In this document: in pieces, positions 2,874-14,688 of the stretch
Numbering within the stretch: the first letter of the stretch is position 1
Layout of the letters: every line of letters begins with the position of its first letter
Virus record (IMG/VR): IMGVR_UViG_2529293063_000008
Direction: 5' to 3' (one strand)
From: a virus
Lineage: Duplodnaviria; Heunggongvirae; Uroviricota; Caudoviricetes
Length of the DNA: 16,953 nucleotides
Notes under the pieces: generated by a model
What the model saw: only the letters and a program-made list of their open reading frames with translations
Told to the model about the DNA's origin: nothing
The model's database searches: none
Translations under genes and position numbers: made by a program

Positions 2874-2895
2874 CCCCGTCCGGAAGGGCGGGGTG
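2874..2895. terminator. Hairpin between convergent genes (possible bidirectional terminator)
   Basis: CCCCGTCC-GGAA-GGGCGGGG stem-loop between the antitoxin stop (2856) and the stop of the minus-strand 72-aa gene (2900); flanking T-runs are weak. Confidence 0.4.
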
Positions 2896-2899
2896 TGTA

Positions 2900-3118
2900 T
2901 CAATGATGTAAACTCTCAACAGCAATAACTTGTTGGCAATTCTGAGCTATCTCCCGCGACATACTAACAAGTCGTGAAATCTCGCCAAGATGCAAGCTGG
3001 CTTCTGGAGAAGCCAGAGCAACGCTAACCAGATCCAAAACGGCGTCGATGTCTTTTAGGTTTGATCCGAGTTCTTCAAGAGTTGATACAGGTGCTTCAGT
3101 CATTGAATCTAATACCAT
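2900..3118 (-). CDS. Hypothetical 72-aa protein, candidate SOS-regulated gene
   Basis: ATG at 3116-3118; promoter region 3119-3187 contains a LexA-box match and an operator-like 17-mer. Protein MVLDSMTEAPVSTLEELGSNLKDIDAVLDLV... is acidic and has no motif I recognise. Confidence 0.5.
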   Translation of the reverse strand: MVLDSMTEAPVSTLEELGSNLKDIDAVLDLVSVALASPEASLHLGEISRLVSMSREIAQNCQQVIAVESLHH

Positions 3119-3142
3119 TTAATTAAAAAAGGTTATTTGATA

Positions 3143-3158
3143 CTGTATAAAATTACAG
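3143..3158. promoter_or_regulatory. LexA (SOS) box CTGT-N8-ACAG
   Basis: TACTGTATAAAATTACAGGG (3141-3160) matches the E. coli SOS-box consensus TACTGTATATATATACAGTA in both CTGT/ACAG arms and the AT-rich centre; 25 nt upstream of the 72-aa gene start. Confidence 0.6.
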
Positions 3159-3168
3159 GGTAAAACTC

Positions 3169-3185
3169 AAATTTTATAGCCAGCT
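3169..3185. promoter_or_regulatory. Distal copy of the repressor-operator-like 17-mer AAATTTTATAGCCAGCT
   Basis: Exact 17-nt identity with 7098-7114 in the cro/repressor intergenic region. Confidence 0.5.
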
Positions 3186-3187
3186 TT

Positions 3188-3342
3188 CAATGGATTAACT
3201 GGTTAAATATCTTTGTAGTCCGATACTTATGTTCCCTTCCTGCGCCTCGCCCAACCACTTCCAAAAGCCCATCACCACCATCAGAAAAGCTCTTTTCGCT
3301 CCGTTTTCGTATCATTTCAAAAAGCAATGCCTTTTTGTCCAT
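3188..3342 (-). CDS. Small hypothetical protein (51 aa), below the ORF-track size cutoff
   Basis: ATG at 3340-3342 with SD GGAGGGG 4-5 nt upstream; translation MDKKALLFEMIRKRSEKSFSDGGDGLLEVVGRGAGREHKYRTTKIFNQLIH; stop at 3188-3190. Confidence 0.3.
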
Positions 3343-3702: not shown

Positions 3703-4362
3703 TTACTTAACCCAATTAACTACACCGCCAGCGGCCACAACCGCTTTTTCACAGTCACGCTCATATCTCAAAGGTTGAAATACACCATCAATAAAATATT
3801 TATCTCCACCACATGCTGCAGGAAGTGAAACAGAAAACTGAATATGACCATCCGGAGTTACCGGAGAGTTGCCAGCCTCATACGCGACCCTTATCCAGTG
3901 CATAAGCATTTCTGTACTTACACATCCACAATCAACATCAATTTTGTCATGCTGCTGTTCCAGCCATTGCTCAAAAGTTAACTTGTAAGTTTGGCTTACA
4001 GGTTTGGCTTCCAGTTCTGCTATGTGATTTTTGGCTGATTCCAACTCAATCGACAATTTTTCCAACTGCTCTTTATGCTTTTTATATTCCTGATATGCGT
4101 GCCAAGACTGACCTTTGCGCACACTATCAGTAATATCAGTAATCTGTTCTGGTGTTAGCGTGGTCAGTGGCTGTGTTGGGAAAATAAGCACTTTCCCGGA
4201 ATCCCAATCAAAACCAGCGTGAATTGACTGAACCTCAACTGAAGGTGTTGAACCAATGCTGCCAGGCGAATGAACAACGATTGTTACATCCATATCGCGA
4301 CGATGGCTGTGGTTGTTGGACAAAATACGATTCACCAACTCAGAAAATTTGGAAAATTTCAT
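3703..4362 (-). CDS. Hypothetical phage early protein with central coiled-coil (possibly Ea22-like)
   Basis: 219 aa; ATG at 4362 with SD AAGGGGG; its start overlaps the upstream stop (ATGA). Coiled-coil-like KEQLEKLSIELESAKNHIAELEAK; family assignment is from memory only. Confidence 0.5.
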   Translation of the reverse strand: MKFSKFSELVNRILSNNHSHRRDMDVTIVVHSPGSIGSTPSVEVQSIHAGFDWDSGKVLIFPTQPLTTLTPEQITDITDSVRKGQSWHAYQEYKKHKEQLEKLSIELESAKNHIAELEAKPVSQTYKLTFEQWLEQQHDKIDVDCGCVSTEMLMHWIRVAYEAGNSPVTPDGHIQFSVSLPAACGGDKYFIDGVFQPLRYERDCEKAVVAAGGVVNWVK

Positions 4363-4649
4363 GCTGATCCCCCTTTCTCTGCTCTCTCCTGTCGGAACAT
4401 CACTATCATCAGGTCGCCTTTTGTCGCTATCCTGGCTGTTGTACCTGGTTCAATGCGGCCAAGTTCAAATGCGTCATAGAACGCCTCCAACGCTTTCTGG
4501 CGTTTTTCCTGTTTGCGGCGCTTTCCCCACTGCTTTAGAAAAACAGAGGCCGCCCACTTCCCCGCACTGAACATGATGTAAAACCAACCGAGAAGTGCCA
4601 GACCGGTATTTAGGGCCATATCGATCGTTATCGTGGTGTCGATATTCAC
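4359..4649 (-). CDS. Small membrane protein (about 96 aa)
   Basis: Start chosen at GTG 4647-4649, preceded by SD AGGAGG with a 7-nt spacer and overlapping the upstream stop (TAGTG); ATG 4619 is an alternative. Hydrophobic segment LALLGWFYIMFSAGKWAASVF. Confidence 0.45.
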   Translation of the reverse strand: MNIDTTITIDMALNTGLALLGWFYIMFSAGKWAASVFLKQWGKRRKQEKRQKALEAFYDAFELGRIEPGTTARIATKGDLMIVMFRQERAEKGGSA

Positions 4650-5874: not shown

Positions 5875-6177
5875 TTAAATGGCGTTATTTTCATTTTCTT
5901 GTGCGACCGTGGTCGCACCCTCTCTAATTTCCAGATAACGCTTAATCCAAAGATTTTCTATATGCTTATTACCTGGCTGATTTGATAAATACCAATCGGC
6001 AATTACAGACTGCTTATTACTATCGGGTCGTGTCCTGTAACCGCAAGTTGGACACCAGATGACATATTCATTTCTTACCCCCGAATACCTTAATTCTGGC
6101 TTCGACGGTTTCCTGAACATAACTTGTTTACAAAGGCAGAATGGCACTTCCTGCCCGATGGCGTTTGATGATTTCAC
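5875..6177 (-). CDS. Zinc-finger protein, possibly Lar-family restriction-alleviation protein
   Basis: Two Cys pairs (PFCLC ... CPTCGYRTRP) about 27 aa apart, followed by ADWYLSN, in the pattern I recall for Lar-like proteins. Start set at GTG 6177 (SD GGAG) so that both Cys pairs are included; overlaps the upstream gene by about 50 nt. Confidence 0.4.
   Translation of the reverse strand: MKSSNAIGQEVPFCLCKQVMFRKPSKPELRYSGVRNEYVIWCPTCGYRTRPDSNKQSVIADWYLSNQPGNKHIENLWIKRYLEIREGATTVAQENENNAI
5900..5919. repeat. Centromere-like palindrome, copy 2
   Basis: TGTGCGACCGTGGTCGCACC; core identical to 1606-1625 and 8345-8360. Lies inside coding sequence at the junction of two small genes. Confidence 0.5.
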
Positions 6178-6838
6178 TGCGCTTCTCCGCCGCATTTAAT
6201 AATGCGGTTCGATTTAAGCTCAGACATCGCGACTTAATTAAAAGCCAGCGTTCTTTATAATCTTGTCTCCAGCTATCAATAGATATATTCAGTAGAAAAC
6301 TCAGATGCCTGTCCTGTTCTCTCTCATCAACTGCCTCAGCACACGTAAGTTCTGATTTAACCTGCTGTGCCGCGTAATAAATCAATTTCCGCATGGCTTT
6401 TTTCGTGGAGGCCTTCATTTTTTTAAAGCCGCCCCCCGAATGAGCAACCAGAAAATCAAGCCATAACCACTGACAAACAATCACATCATTGTTGTAGTCA
6501 GGCTTGCATCCGTAGCAATAATAAAGCCAGGCTGATTCCTCGTTATTCAACTGACAAATAGCCCTGCGCCAGCTGGCGCTCTGAAAATCAATATCAGTGA
6601 GCAACATTGATGATTGTTTAAATGTTTTCCCCTGGTGGAATCTAACCGGCTCAGCGGGAACGGACACTTCGTATGAGTTATCATCCCCCACACTGATTGA
6701 CCGGACTGGTTTATTGTTAAACCGTCCTGATCTACCGAGACGCATCTGCTCAAGCTGGACCTCCAGAATGCCACGCTGGCGATAATGAACATCAGCCAAT
6801 GCCGTAGAGACGCAGCTGCGTATATACTCAAGCTCCAC
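6128..6838 (-). CDS. Hypothetical regulatory protein immediately downstream of cro (position of a cII- or Q-like early regulator)
   Basis: 236 aa; GTG start at 6838 overlapping the cro-like stop by 11 nt (ATG 6745 is an alternative); Cys-rich segment WLYYCYGCKPDYNNDVIVCQW. Function not assignable by eye. Confidence 0.5.
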   Translation of the reverse strand: MELEYIRSCVSTALADVHYRQRGILEVQLEQMRLGRSGRFNNKPVRSISVGDDNSYEVSVPAEPVRFHQGKTFKQSSMLLTDIDFQSASWRRAICQLNNEESAWLYYCYGCKPDYNNDVIVCQWLWLDFLVAHSGGGFKKMKASTKKAMRKLIYYAAQQVKSELTCAEAVDEREQDRHLSFLLNISIDSWRQDYKERWLLIKSRCLSLNRTALLNAAEKRSEIIKRHRAGSAILPL

Positions 6839-7049
6839 GCTTACGACTCTCCTTAATCGACTGCTTTACCCGCCGAGTTGTAAAGTCACTCTTCAGCTTG
6901 TAAGCAGTACGAACTTCAATATCGCTTTGCCGCAATGAAGGAATCTCTCCAGCGGTTAACCATTGGTAAACAGCTCCGGGTGTTACACCTACCCCTGCCG
7001 CTGCTTTTTCAACACTGCCAAAGTGGCGAATAAGTTCTTCTGGTTTCAT
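6828..7049 (-). CDS. Cro-like HTH regulator
   Basis: Start moved to ATG 7049 (MKPEELIRHFGSVEKAAAGVGVTPGAVYQWL...); HTH motif; divergent from the repressor gene across an operator-containing intergenic region. Confidence 0.65.
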   Translation of the reverse strand: MKPEELIRHFGSVEKAAAGVGVTPGAVYQWLTAGEIPSLRQSDIEVRTAYKLKSDFTTRRVKQSIKESRKRGA

Positions 7050-7080
7050 GTTGTTATTATAAACAATAAACAATAATTAA

Positions 7081-7134
7081 AGCCAGCTATAATAAATAAA
7101 TTTTATAGCCAGCTATAAGAAGATCATTTATGAT
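7081..7134. promoter_or_regulatory. Immunity-switch operator/promoter region with two operator copies
   Basis: AGCCAGCTATAA at 7081-7092 and 7109-7120; the second sits in TATAGC-CA-GCTATA with perfect 6-bp arms (7103-7116). TATGAT (7129-7134) lies 6 nt before the repressor ATG, suggesting a leaderless repressor mRNA. Confidence 0.5.
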
Positions 7135-7140
7135 TACAGT

Positions 7141-7737
7141 ATGAAAACACGAGGCGAACGACTGAAAGCACGCCGTTTAGAGATGAAGCTGACGTTGCGA
7201 GAAGTTGCTGAGGCTGTCGATATCTCTATAGCAGGCGTCCAAAACTTAGAACGTGGCGACGTAATGCCGTCACTGGAGATAGGTATTGCCCTGGCTAAGT
7301 GCTTACGCAAGCCAGTACATTGGGTGCTATATGGGACAGAATATGACCCTGATCGCATTCCTGTTATTGGCACAACTGAAAGTGGGCCTGATGAAGAGTG
7401 GAAGCCGGGACAGGTTCCAAATACTGAGCGATTCCTGCCATTCATCAGCCAGCGCAATACTGTGTATGCGTTAACTATCAGCAATCTTACGCAGGGAAAC
7501 TATCAGCCAGGCGATTTTCTCCTGGTCGATTCTGCGCTGGAACTGGTCCCCGGCGAGGATGTTCTGGTTCGTGATACTGCAGGAAATATCACTATCCAGC
7601 GCCTAGCCCGTTTTGATGATGAAAATTACTATCTGGATGGAACAAACTCACAACGCGCTATCTTCAGGAAAAGCGATCTTGAATTTGTTCACCAAATAGT
7701 CGGAACGATCAAATCATTCATGGTTGAGGGTAGATGA
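7141..7737 (+). CDS. CI-like prophage repressor (N-terminal HTH, C-terminal S24-like domain that appears to lack the catalytic lysine)
   Basis: 198 aa; HTH LTLREVAEAVDISIAGVQNLERG; C-terminal GDFLLVDS...GEDVLVR...ITIQRLAR resembles LexA/CI (GDLLAV...VTVKRL) but has Q where the catalytic K is expected. No Ala-Gly in the linker. Confidence 0.8.
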   Translation: MKTRGERLKARRLEMKLTLREVAEAVDISIAGVQNLERGDVMPSLEIGIALAKCLRKPVHWVLYGTEYDPDRIPVIGTTESGPDEEWKPGQVPNTERFLPFISQRNTVYALTISNLTQGNYQPGDFLLVDSALELVPGEDVLVRDTAGNITIQRLARFDDENYYLDGTNSQRAIFRKSDLEFVHQIVGTIKSFMVEGR

Positions 7738-7839
7738 CTTAATACGGGGTTTATTGTTTGCTGTAAATCTGGTTTAATGCAGGGCATATGTTCTGTGGGT
7801 TGACTCAGGTTACAGCAGCAGAAAAAAGACGAAAAAAAA

Positions 7840-7868
7840 CCCGAGTCGGCAAACTCGGGTCCTTTTCA
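7840..7868 (+). terminator. Intrinsic terminator downstream of the repressor gene
   Basis: CCCGAGT-CGGCAAA-ACTCGGG hairpin followed by TCCTTTTC; preceded by an A8 run, so possibly bidirectional. Confidence 0.55.
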
Positions 7869-7982
7869 GGAAGCAGCCACAGTAACGCGACGGATTCCGT
7901 CAATTCAAGATGCGTTTATTGTGGCTGCTCCTGCGGATTTTTTCAACCCGAAAAAACATAATTCGCATGGAATGGCTAAAAA

Positions 7983-10900
7983 ATGACATTAAACGATTTC
8001 TATGCGGATCGCTTTGGCAGCGATCCGTTCTCGCTAATTGAAGCAGCACGGGATGAACTAACCGAGCTGGCACAGATGGCTGGTATCAACTGGCCTGCCT
8101 GTTCCGACAACATCCAACTCAACCCTCGCGGGGGTGTTGAGCGTTACTCTTCATACAATAAAACATCTCCAGAAGCTCTCGAGAAGAGCCTCAAAGGACG
8201 CGTAGAAATTTACTCCCGGCTGGAACACAGCAAAGGGATTGATTACCCGTTCATTAACTTCGTCCATAAAGGCAGCGATGCTGGCTCATGGAGCGGTTTC
8301 TCCTTCCTGTTTTCTGAATATCGCCGTGAGCAACAACGGAATAATGCGACCGTGGTCGCACAACCGGAAGAAGAACGGGCAAGAATAGAACGTCAGGCCG
8401 AAGCACGTCGTCGCCGTGAAGAACAAAAACGAATTAATGACCTGAAAAACAACCAAATTGACCATGAACGTTTGCTGGGATGGCTGGCATTTCACAGCGC
8501 GTGGGAACATGCTCCTGCAGAAGACGGCTCATGGCCATATGCGATTAAAAAAGGTATTCGTGACGTTTTTAATTCGTGTGATGTGCGTCGCGTGACCAGT
8601 CACGACAGCGCAAAATGGAGCAGGGGGCCAACCACGTATATGGCTATCCCTCTGGCTCACCTGGACGGTCGTTACGATGGTCGTATTGTGGGTTGGCAGC
8701 GAATCGACAAACAAGGTGGAAAATACCAGACCAGCGCAGTAACCAGCGGCGATTTCGTCGGTGCCTGCTTTGTTATCGGTGAGCTGAAAGGGGCGCAAAA
8801 CATCGCTGTTACAGAAGGTTTTGCTACTGGTGCATCCATCTGGCTTGCCACGAAAAAAGATAAACGCTTTGACGCTGTGGTTGTCGCTGTATCCGCTAAC
8901 AACATGGTTCATGTTGTGGAACAACTGGTAAACATGTACCCGGCGGCAAAAATCACCTGCGCACTGGATAATGACCGGAAATCTGCCACAGAAGGAAAAG
9001 GGAATACCGGCCTGCGGACTGGCTATGAAATCTTATCGAAATTCAACGATGTCCGCTGCGTCTATCCAACTTTTGAAGACGATCCGCAAATGGAGTGCAG
9101 TGACTTCAACGACCTGCACAAACTACGTGGACTTCGTGAAACAGCACGTCAACTATTTGCAACAGCAAACCGCCTGAAAACTGGTACTGATTTGCTATCT
9201 CTGACGCTCAACCGCCTGAAGACAATTAAGCGGGATAACCGTCGTACTTTTGCCAAAGAGCTGCTGAGAGCGGTGGATATTGGCATGCTAACCTGTCCGG
9301 TTCCTAACAGTCCGTCAGATTTATTTAACATGTTCTGCATCGTTCTGCGTGAAATGGGACTGGAAAATATCTATCGCGCTACGGTAAAAGACCACATTGC
9401 CCGTCGCCTGAATAAAAAGTGCCGTATTGCCCAGGCTCCGCGCTCTTTCAGCGAACGCATAACTGATCCCAATAAACGCCCTCAACATATCACATATAAG
9501 CGTTTTGAAACTTCGGTAATGACCGATGATGTCCTGAAGTACGTGCAATCACTACAGGGGATAGTCATCGTCCGTGCTGGTATGGGTTCCGGCAAATCTA
9601 CTGGATTGTTACGACCGTTAATGCATAGCTCAGAACGTGGTATCTCTGTTGCTCACCGTGTCTCCCTTATTGGCGGCCTGTGGGAAATGATGACAGAAGG
9701 AAAAGGTGTAAAAGCCGATATCCTGCACTATCAGGATCCTGGCTATCAGGAAATAGCTCCATACGCCAGTAAACTGACCATCTGCATAAACTCGATTGTT
9801 AAAAACTGCTGGCAACCGTTGATGCGCCAGCACGACTATTTTGGCTTTGACGAGGCCACACAAGGGCTACGTGCCGTTCTTTCCGGTCGGGCTATGGAAA
9901 ACCCGGTGGCTGTATTCAATACGCTAATTGACGCGCTGGCCAGAACAGAACAACACCCAATCATGGTGGATGCTGATGCGAATGATCTGCTGGTTGACCT
10001 GGCTGAACTGGCTATGAAACGCCGTGAAGAACTAGGTTTACCGGCATGGCTGCAGATCCACGTAATTGAATTACCTGTTGATGTTCGCAACCGCGAAACA
10101 GGTGAGCCAATCCGGGTTTTTTATACAGAAAAAGATCGCATCATGACCGAGGTGGTGAAAGCTGTATCGGATGGCGAAAAAATCATGTTGGCCACCGACA
10201 GCTCCACCTTTGCAGAAGATGTGACAGCCACCCTGAGAATGCATTTTCCTGGTAAGAAATTTCTGTGTGTAAACCAGAAAAACAAACCAGAGCCAGAAGT
10301 TGAAGCATTTACCAATCAACCGAAAAAGATGGTCAAAAAATACGACGGCCTGATTTATAGCCCGTCTATTTCATCCGGCGTGTCGATTGAGCAAAAACAT
10401 TTTGACCGTCATTTCGGCATGTTCTGTGGTGAAGTTGTACCCAGCGACGCAGTGCAAATGCTACGCCGCGACCGTACAGCAAAAGAATTTATTATCGGCT
10501 TTGATAAAGCTCGTGCAAAACGTGAAACTGACCCGCAAAAAATAGAACGAGCATTCGCCCAGGCATTGCTTGCTACCGCAGGTATGAACGGTGAACTGAC
10601 GGATGTCGTTTTCGATGGCGACCGTATATCAATGGGGGTGGCCAATACCGACTTTACCAGGATGAAAATTAAAGCAGCCGCTATTGAAGCGACTGCGCGT
10701 AACGACTACGCCAGCAACATGATCTGCATCATGCACAGCGACGGTTATAAGGTATCGCCGCTGGCCACCGATTATGCTGCGAATGATATCGGTAAAGAGC
10801 TGCGTAAAGAAGCGCGGGATATTGTGTGGGAACAGACACTGGATCTGCATCTCAATACAGAAACTCCACAAGAATCAGAGCGTGAAGAACTGCTAAAAAA

Positions 10901-13215: not shown

Positions 13216-13235
13216 TAAAATGTCTTTTCAAATTA

Positions 13236-13265
13236 TTGACGTGTGCGTCGTTTTGACGGTAAAGT
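13236..13265 (+). promoter_or_regulatory. Candidate sigma70 promoter of the antirepressor (immI-like) operon
   Basis: TTGACG (13236-13241), 18-nt spacer, TAAAGT (13260-13265). Confidence 0.3.
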
Positions 13266-13378
13266 TACTTCGCTGCGGTAAATCCCGTAGCCGGGACTCT
13301 CAACCCCGAAATCCGAACGACGCACAACACGCGCCAGCGTGTTTTTTTGTGTGTATGAGCCTGCGCATATCCGAATTA

Positions 13379-13460
13379 TGGTGGCTCAGGTGGGGCAGCC
13401 GAAAGGCTGGCCGGTGTCGTTTGGGCCGGTGTTGAGAACCCCGCTTGGGCTACCACCCCA
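13379..13460 (+). ncRNA. Candidate c4-type antisense RNA (P1 c4 / N15 CA RNA analogue); boundaries approximate
   Basis: About 80-nt GC-rich segment closed by GGTGG (13380-13384) / CCACC (13453-13457) with internal hairpins. Loop GGTGTTGAGAACCCC (13428-13442) is complementary to ACTCTCAACCCC (13296-13307) and ATTCTCAACTC (13466-13476), which flank it upstream of the icd-like start. Confidence 0.4.
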
Positions 13461-13514: not shown

Positions 13515-13679
13515 ATGTTCAAATTCAAATTTGCGGCAGTCGTTCGCACAGACAAAAAGTCACACATCCATCATCTTTCCACCATCGCGTCATCTGAACG
13601 GGAAGCTCGTCGCCAGTTCGCCAGCCGGTTTGTCCTGGTATTGTCTGCCCGTATTCCGGTGCGCGAGGTGGCTGCATGA
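13515..13679 (+). CDS. Icd-like small protein (first gene of the antirepressor operon)
   Basis: ATG 13515 (MFKFKFAAVVRTDKKSHIHHLSTIASSEREARRQFASRFVLVLSARIPVREVAA); the longest ORF begins at GTG 13479. Stop overlaps the next start (ATGA). Resemblance to Icd-like proteins is from memory. Confidence 0.5.
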   Translation: MFKFKFAAVVRTDKKSHIHHLSTIASSEREARRQFASRFVLVLSARIPVREVAA

Positions 13680-13909
13680 ATCAGGTAAAAATGAACACTG
13701 TTGGCCTGCTGGAATCGTTGGATGAACGTCTGGCTCAGGTCTATGCGCTTGTGTCATCCGCCCATCGTACAGTCTCCAGCTGTGAGGCGTCGATTTATCT
13801 CTCAGAAGCCGGGAAGCTCCTTCAAATTGCGTGTGAGTTGACACACAAAGCACAGGGGTATTCAGCATCTCTCTCGTCGCAATTGCAGCACAATAAGGAG
13901 GCCAAATGA
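13676..13909 (+). CDS. Hypothetical protein (77 aa), translationally coupled middle gene of the antirepressor operon
   Basis: SD GAGGTGG 6 nt upstream; ATGA overlaps at both ends. Confidence 0.55.
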   Translation: MNQVKMNTVGLLESLDERLAQVYALVSSAHRTVSSCEASIYLSEAGKLLQIACELTHKAQGYSASLSSQLQHNKEAK

Positions 13910-14688
13910 GCGCGTTAGCTGTATTTTCGTTTCAGGAAGAGCATCAGGTTCGTGTAGTGATGATTAACGGCGATCCGTGGTTTGTAGCGGCTGATGTTTG
14001 TAATGCCATCGGGATTATCAATCATCGTGATGCTGTTGGTAAGTTGGATGAAGACGAAAAGGGGGTCGGTTCAACAGACACCCTTGGAGGTAAACAGGGA
14101 GTGACAATTATTAACGAATCCGGCCTCTATACCCTAATCCTCCGCTGCCGTGACGCGGTGAAGCAAGGCACAACAGCTTGGCGGTTTCGCAAATGGGTAA
14201 CGAACGAAGTCTTGCCCTCTATTCGCAAAAATGGAGAGTACGTTTACGTCGAGCCAGAGCCAATGCGAGCAGCAGAGCCGTTGAACTGGAGGCAGAAAGA
14301 GTATCTGCGAGGGCTGATTAACGATATTGCACAAAGTTTTCAATACCGAAATGCCTGGATTAGCGGTGTATGGTTGGCTTTGCGTCGGGCGTGTCGTAAT
14401 CCATCCCCGAACCCCATAACTGTTGATGATTTGCCAGCAATTACGGCAGAACTGCGCCGGATTTTGACGGCTGCTGAGTCGGCATTGGGGAACATGCGCA
14501 CGTATGAACGAGAGTTGTTGCGTGATGTTGTTCGTGGTGGTAGGCGGAGTATGTCGTGTGGTGATTTGCCCATCACCGATATCAACTCTGATCTGGAAAA
14601 GGCGTTACCCGCGCATTTTGAACTGGCAGTTCAAAAACTTGAGCAGTTATCCGCGCAGCTAAAGCCAGCAGAAATCACCAATAAATAG
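13906..14688 (+). CDS. Phage antirepressor with N-terminal Bro-N/AntA-type domain
   Basis: 260 aa; SD AAGGAGG; N-terminal FSFQEEHQVRVVMINGDPWFVAADVCNAIGIINHRDAVGKLDEDEKG...IINESGLYTLILRCR...KWVTNEVLPSIRKNGEY matches the antirepressor signature as I remember it. Confidence 0.8.
   Translation: MSALAVFSFQEEHQVRVVMINGDPWFVAADVCNAIGIINHRDAVGKLDEDEKGVGSTDTLGGKQGVTIINESGLYTLILRCRDAVKQGTTAWRFRKWVTNEVLPSIRKNGEYVYVEPEPMRAAEPLNWRQKEYLRGLINDIAQSFQYRNAWISGVWLALRRACRNPSPNPITVDDLPAITAELRRILTAAESALGNMRTYERELLRDVVRGGRRSMSCGDLPITDINSDLEKALPAHFELAVQKLEQLSAQLKPAEITNK

Follow-up and report, generated by a model that had tools for sequence, protein, structure and literature searches.

The window analysed here is a 16,953-nucleotide stretch of a virus of the class Caudoviricetes (IMG/VR record IMGVR_UViG_2529293063_000008). 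At 7141–7737, on the plus strand, it contains a real open reading frame that begins with ATG and encodes a protein of 198 residues. This protein is 78% identical to gp38 (CB) of phage N15 over its full length and without a single gap (154 of 198 residues, E 4e-121), and the protein of Escherichia phage YDC107_1 matches it at 100%. At the nucleotide level, the 1.2 kb spanning the gene are 99% identical to YDC107_1, 97% to PhiR46_1 and about 78% to N15 and phiKO2. The surroundings are those of the N15 immB region. The genes for Cro and a Q-type late antiterminator flank the repressor gene on one side, and repA, a 1331-aa open reading frame in the slot of N15 gp37, flanks it on the other. A protelomerase gene lies further on in the same element, and all four TelK domains were found in its product with Pfam. 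The start of cro was set at the ATG at 7049, as read from the sequence. From this orthology, the N15-type neighbours and a shared operator, we assign the gene as cB. Its predicted product is a primary immunity repressor of the CB type, and the element is an N15-like linear telomere phage-plasmid. N15-like elements are common in Enterobacteriaceae and account for 210 of 271 telN-repA loci (Silpe et al. 2023, PMC10432266). The features discussed below are collected in Table 1.

Table 1. Features of the window that bear on the CB repressor and its control
Feature	Position	Strand	Evidence
antC ortholog, small (72 aa) SOS-controlled antirepressor	2900..3118	-	N15 ORF match, PHROG
LexA box CTGTATAAAATTACAG, 24 nt ahead of the start codon of antC	3143..3158		pattern CTGT-N8-ACAG
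Q-type late antiterminator	6128..6838	-	Pfam Phage_antiter_Q, E 2.7e-84
cro, lytic repressor, divergent from cB	6828..7049	-	Pfam P22_Cro, E 2.4e-22; arrangement as N15 gp39
OR operator cluster, cB-cro intergenic	7054..7118		three 16-bp sites: 7054-7069, 7077-7092, 7103-7118
cB, prophage repressor, ortholog of N15 gp38/CB	7141..7737	+	ORF; identity to N15 and YDC107_1 proteins
HTH_3 (XRE/Cro-CI type) DNA-binding domain, residues 8-61	7162..7323	+	Pfam, E 3e-11
Ser81-Gly82, vestigial cleavage site at the LexA Ala84-Gly85 position	7381..7386	+	three alignments
Catalytically dead C-terminal domain (S24-like beta-barrel), residues 98-198	7432..7734	+
Thr117 codon ACG, LexA Ser119 nucleophile position	7489..7491	+	three alignments
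Gln153 codon CAG, LexA Lys156 general-base position	7597..7599	+	three alignments
C4-type antisense RNA	13374..13460	+	full-length match to Rfam RF01695, 71.8 bits (gathering score 45)
icd-like small ORF (54 aa) of the immA operon, tentative	13516..13678	+	tblastn
Putative antA (77-aa ORF), positional ortholog of N15 gp31	13676..13909	+	identity, PHROG
antB, Bro-N/Ant family	13906..14688	+	Pfam Bro-N, E 1.6e-20; PHROG 'anti-repressor Ant' families

Within the OR cluster, the site at 7103–7118 (TTATAGCCAGCTATAA) is identical to an N15 sequence inside the annotated CB operator span, and the site at 7077–7092 differs from it by one mismatch. The stretch at 7054–7069 is a probable third operator, called by its position and its similarity to the N15 span. 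The operator search gave five matches, against 0.16 expected. A further CB-operator-like 16-mer, TTATAGCCAGCTTTCA, with two mismatches to the OR operator, is found at 3174–3189, just upstream of the LexA box of antC. If this site were functional, CB could co-repress antC. However, neither YDC107_1, whose CB is the same, nor N15 shares the 16-mer. The site may therefore be specific to this lineage or a chance match, and a CB/LexA double lock on the antC promoter was dropped for the same reason. On the other side of cB, ahead of repA, the minus strand can form a strong terminator-like hairpin at 7832–7867 (16 pairs, T-run), in the same place as a putative terminator annotated in N15. Compared with the closest phage records, YDC107_1 and PhiR46_1, the window is a mosaic. 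Whereas the cB region (6800–8000) is 97–99% identical, the antC region (2880–3260) reaches just 81%, with an AntC protein that is 78% identical.

In the C-terminal domain, the Pfam Peptidase_S24 match (residues 99–171) scores 21.3 bits, below the gathering score of 23.3, and in a sequence search of solved structures the confident matches were to HTH domains only, with UmuD appearing at an E of about 0.7. Aligning the CB family profile with a profile of 15 active S24 proteins in hhalign gave a probability of 100% (E 6e-48), with an alignment that is continuous over the entire C-terminal domain. A profile search of 1.84 billion representatives returned 5,501 relatives, many of which match the C-terminal domain alone at E<1e-12. 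We also utilised AlphaFold2 to predict the structure from the family alignment, with high confidence (mean pLDDT 87.8). Searching the PDB with this model in Foldseek placed the full-length lambda repressor, a lambda-186 hybrid repressor and 186 CI at the top, together with lambda CI on the RecA filament and LexA, although the TM-scores to solved C-terminal domains are moderate (0.5–0.6). Because the lambda, 186 and LexA repressors take the top ranks, we consider the fold assignment sound despite the sub-threshold Pfam score. The S24 fold signature that a preliminary description of this DNA had recognised by eye is thereby confirmed.

To place the catalytic positions, the CB protein was aligned with 19 family members and five references of the self-cleaving type, namely E. 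coli LexA, lambda CI and three CI repressors that carry the complete set of Ala-Gly, Ser and Lys; PY54 CI and N15 CB were included for comparison. Three methods were used (MAFFT L-INS-i, the family profile HMM against all collected sequences, and hhalign profile-profile alignment), and the register agrees in all of them. The structural invariants of active S24 proteins (LexA P77, G85, L113, G128 and G142) are all retained; in CB numbering, the invariants kept are P74, G82, P83, L111, G124 and G138. GDFLLV of CB pairs with GDLLAV of the LexA/lambda CI reference, just as had been proposed by eye. ITIQRL pairs with VTVKRL (LexA V-T-V-K156-R-L with CB I-T-I-Q153-R-L), which puts Gln153 in the column of LexA Lys156, and none of the alignments sets a Lys at the catalytic position. 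The loss of the lysine claimed in the preliminary description therefore stands. Its companion claim, that the serine position is still present because GMSMKD equals TISNLT, does not, as that register is three residues off. LexA L113-R-V-S-G-M-S119-M pairs with CB L111-T-I-S-N-L-T117-Q, so that the nucleophile column is occupied by Thr117 and Ser114 of CB faces the non-catalytic Ser116 of LexA.

The cleavage site has changed as well. No Ala-Gly occurs within the linker of CB (residues 66–97), in agreement with the earlier reading; LexA V-A-A84-G85 pairs with CB T-E-S81-G82, so the homologous dipeptide is Ser81-Gly82, embedded in the conserved motif IPVIGTTxSGPD. The columns themselves were checked in two ways. 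The known Ala-Gly, Ser and Lys of lambda CI land in the same three columns, and Ser and Lys stand exactly at both catalytic columns in 80 of the 114 cluster representatives (50% identity) whose C-terminal domain aligns. In the scissile-Ala column, every member of the inactive clade has Ser or Thr, and each of the six aligned active references has Ala; the dipeptide is more varied among the 114 representatives (AG in 39, GG in 20, LG in 16).

Residue 117 is Ala in a 99%-identical variant (P0001, the representative of 156 sequences clustered at 90% identity) and Ile in N15, and within the clade the column is the sixth most variable of the 127 positions from residue 72 to 198. Judged by this variation, Thr117 carries no weight as a retained nucleophile. 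Column 153 holds Q, Y, F, M, L or G in the clade. Around the catalytic Ser, active enzymes have a Gly and a Met (LexA G117 and M120), for which CB has N115 and Q118. With the Ser, the Lys, the flanking Gly and Met and the scissile Ala all replaced, CB is therefore not an active S24 member.

Relatives of CB show that the complete set can be found in homologous repressors. P0054, a full-length relative with 42–44% identity, retains Ala-Gly, Ser and Lys and aligns unambiguously, and the repressors of the Vibrio and Aeromonas telomere phages Valp1 and phiARM81ld are likewise intact. By sequence, PY54 CI falls in between: it has TG at the cleavage site and Ala in the nucleophile column but keeps the Lys. 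In the N15 clade all three features are lost, and the scissile Ala has become Ser or Thr throughout. The Ser/Lys dyad is absent from about 30% of the nearest cluster representatives, a figure that is biased upward as the profile was built on inactive members; loss of catalysis thus looks frequent in this repressor family.

The dN/dS ratio between the window cB and N15 cB is about 0.10 and is alike in the HTH domain, the linker with the former cleavage region and the C-terminal domain. Members of the inactive clade hardly differ in the motif IPVIGTTxSGPD around the former scissile bond. Their catalytic positions vary freely, while the domain as a whole stays at a dN/dS of 0.10. By these measures, the dead S24 domain is not decaying; it is kept under purifying selection for what would be a non-catalytic job. 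Several of the database homologs of CB (among P0029, P0036, P0039, P0045 and P0046) appear frameshifted in the linker, for example with 'LVLNLILTAFLLLAQQK' where 'YGTESDPDRVPVIGTTE' is expected, and some are N-terminally truncated to 156 aa. These odd homologs may be sequencing errors or come from decaying prophages.

How a repressor of this kind could be inactivated is suggested by two further loci of the window, both of which had been put forward as candidate antirepressor routes and both of which hold the genes expected of them. The product of the small gene at the first locus is 57% identical to the open reading frame at the same position in N15 (E 4e-27) and matches phrog_6301 (E 3e-36) as well as phrog_10889, annotated 'anti-repressor'. 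The gene stands where antC is expected and, on this evidence, is the antC ortholog. The LexA box in front of it is close to the consensus, and CTGT-N8-ACAG occurs nowhere else in the window. Its N15 counterpart (CTGTGTTTATATACAG) lies at the same place, and the box is conserved in both N15 and YDC107_1. A simple consensus scan around the box returned no sigma-70 promoter. In the N15 record (AF064539), the equivalent open reading frame (4141–4380, minus strand) lies between gp47 and gp48 behind CTGTGTTTATATACAG and is unannotated in GenBank, so that a comparison by name with 'gp47' fails. We had considered gp47 as the antC counterpart and rejected it: BLASTP found no similarity, gp47 being the neighbouring gene and the true counterpart lying downstream.

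At the second locus, a C4-type antisense RNA precedes an icd-like open reading frame, antA and antB. The RNA probably corresponds to the small processed RNA through which the anti-immunity system of N15 is controlled. In tblastn, the icd-like product matches the region of N15 gene 32 at 61% identity, and its homolog in phage KpLi5 carries the annotation of an Icd-like cell-division inhibitor; this assignment stays tentative because the product has no PHROG match. BLASTP gave no alignment to the annotated N15 gp32. The next product is 59% identical to N15 gp31 and matches phrog_6301 (E 1.4e-36) and phrog_10889, 'anti-repressor' (E 1e-17). We read its gene as antA because the product is a paralog of AntC, and we infer that N15 gp31 is AntA. 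The antB product is 74% identical to N15 gp30.

The paralogy of AntC and the 77-aa AntA is visible in the PHROG profile, where both match phrog_6301 over their full length at an E of about 1e-36, and in a multiple alignment, which is gapless with about 25% identity and a common E-A-S/T-x-x-L/M-x-E motif; pairwise BLASTP between the two is not significant. Directly upstream of the C4 RNA, at 13272–13347 on the plus strand, lies a match to the Rfam family isrK, an Hfq-binding sRNA (54.9 bits). A mechanically called open reading frame at 13220–13435 (phrog_34583, function unknown) overlaps both RNA matches and so may not be a real gene.

These features fit what has been reported for the closest relatives of CB. 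Hammerl et al. (2016, PMC4997575) detected neither a RecA cleavage site nor the essential Ser and Lys in the CB proteins of phiKO2 and N15. In experiments with ciprofloxacin as the SOS inducer, VP882 cI is cleaved but the N15 repressor is non-proteolytic (Silpe et al. 2023, PMC10432266, Fig. 1b), and predicted cleavable and non-cleavable telomere-phage repressors form separate clades (Silpe et al. 2023, PMC10432266). Later papers (PMC3121763, PMC4488713) cite Mardanov & Ravin 2007 for the finding that N15 induction requires AntC, itself under LexA control, and Ravin et al. 1999 for the control of the N15 antirepressor gene by a small processed RNA; the binding of AntC to CB in N15 is likewise taken second-hand from the same two papers. 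A non-self-cleaving, antirepressor-dependent CB is thus already published for N15-type repressors, and the case described here is an ordinary one.

We therefore favour, with a probability of roughly 0.9, a reading in which CB is the dead-protease repressor of an N15-like element and is induced indirectly via antirepressors, its function being transferred from the 78%-identical N15 protein. The HTH domain of CB would bind the 16-bp operators between cB and cro and thereby keep the cro-Q lytic operon off; CB probably also binds operators upstream of repA, as in N15. The C-terminal domain would descend from a LexA/CI S24 autoprotease and now serve a structural purpose in dimerisation or cooperativity, and it probably also offers the surface to which antirepressors dock. 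With Ser replaced by Thr117, Lys by Gln153 and Ala-Gly by Ser81-Gly82, activated RecA (RecA*) should be unable to trigger self-cleavage. Upon DNA damage, cleavage of host LexA would instead free the LexA box of antC, and the AntC then made would bind CB and take it off the DNA. The second route would be gated by the C4-type antisense RNA, which controls an operon that could deliver AntA and the Bro-N protein AntB. The preliminary description had predicted a repressor that cannot cleave itself and relies on antirepressors. This prediction gains more support than was originally argued for it, because the nucleophile is lost besides the Lys and the Ala-Gly.

The argument from lost residues would be meaningless if the resemblance to S24 were superficial and the C-terminal domain an unrelated oligomerisation domain. 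The Pfam score below threshold and the moderate TM-scores could be taken in that sense. Such a reading is scarcely conceivable in view of the hhalign probability of 100% with an alignment running across the whole domain, the retention of every structural invariant of active S24 proteins, and P0054, in which the intact Ala-Gly, Ser and Lys align unambiguously with CB at 42–44% identity. Given the S24 ancestry, CB might still cleave itself, with Thr117 as the nucleophile, another residue as general base and a cut at Ser81-Gly82 or elsewhere. A threonine in the nucleophile column could in principle act, and Gly82 and the motif around it are conserved. However, the obligatory Lys is replaced by Gln153, the equivalents of G117 and M120 are gone too (N115 and Q118), the 99%-identical variant that stands for the 156-member cluster (90% identity) has Ala117, and N15 CB, with Ile in this place, is reported to be non-proteolytic after SOS induction (PMC10432266). 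Self-cleavage is thus extremely improbable.

A further alternative is inactivation by a separate, dedicated protease in the style of ImmA/ImmR, rather than by stoichiometric antirepressor binding; such systems do exist for HTH repressors without peptidase activity of their own (PMC10432266). We deem it very unlikely here. The scanned open reading frames, a subset of those in the 17 kb of the window, include no ImmA-like metalloprotease, SOS induction does not lead to proteolysis of the N15 repressor (PMC10432266), and an antC ortholog with its LexA box is present.

If CB is indeed displaced by antirepressors, the paralogy of AntC and AntA allows a more speculative extension. One small antirepressor fold may have been duplicated under two sensors, the LexA box and the C4 RNA, with both copies docking on the dead S24 cleft and the IPVIGTTxSGPD strand. 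Docking on the former active-site region would explain strong purifying selection without catalysis. Paralogy and purifying selection are found in the data, and the docking site is speculation; we regard this idea as a whole as doubtful. A more practical consequence concerns annotation. In databases it goes under the names 'LexA family transcriptional regulator' and 'S24 family peptidase', which wrongly suggest self-cleavage; 'S24-derived pseudo-protease repressor' would describe it better than S24 family peptidase. Beyond correct annotation, the point matters little.

The overall organisation of the CB system is closest to the CB/AntC/immA system of N15 (CA RNA/icd/antA/antB), with phiKO2 CB as a further near relative. 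Both N15 and the window element have a CB of equal length, at 78% identity, the gene order Q-cro / cB / repA ... immA ... telN, an identical OR operator sequence, a CB in which the Lys (here Gln153) and the Ala-Gly are lost, a LexA-boxed antC gene in the same place, and an orthologous immA module. However, the window CB has Thr117 and Ser81 where N15 has Ile and Thr81, AntC is just 57% identical, and the window element is closer to YDC107_1 and PhiR46_1.

When comparing CB with the repressors of phage 186 and the Gifsy phages, the operators and the oligomeric architecture differ, and 186 CI showed no detectable sequence similarity to CB in the sequence-only search of solved structures. What these systems share, in 186 CI/Tum as in Gifsy GfoA/GftA, is a non-cleavable repressor combined with a small, LexA-boxed antirepressor gene outside the immunity region (PMC3121763). 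Tum is about twice the size of GfoA and GftA and has a DinI-like half (PMC3121763). The architecture of LexA, lambda CI and UmuD (MEROPS S24) is kept in CB, with an HTH domain followed by an S24 beta-barrel and with the cleavage-region strand and the GD, G and L motifs; unlike these proteins, CB lacks the Ser nucleophile, the Lys base, the flanking Gly and Met and the scissile Ala.

The cI repressors of VP882, Valp1 and phiARM81ld are homologous full-length telomere-phage repressors in the same genomic slot (24–27% identity), but unlike CB they keep Ala-Gly, Ser and Lys. VP882 cI undergoes SOS-dependent autoproteolysis (Silpe 2023, PMC10432266), and the ARM81ld module behaves like that of an A. 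popoffii phage whose cI autoproteolyses on DNA damage (Silpe 2023, PMC10432266). The second antirepressor route is reminiscent of immI of P1 and P7 (c4 RNA, icd and ant), since a C4-family antisense RNA (RF01695) is followed by a tentatively assigned icd-like open reading frame and antirepressor genes; the window operon differs in having the small AntA, a paralog of AntC, and the Bro-N protein AntB. The target repressors differ as well, with the HTH/S24-like CB in the window and C1 in P1.
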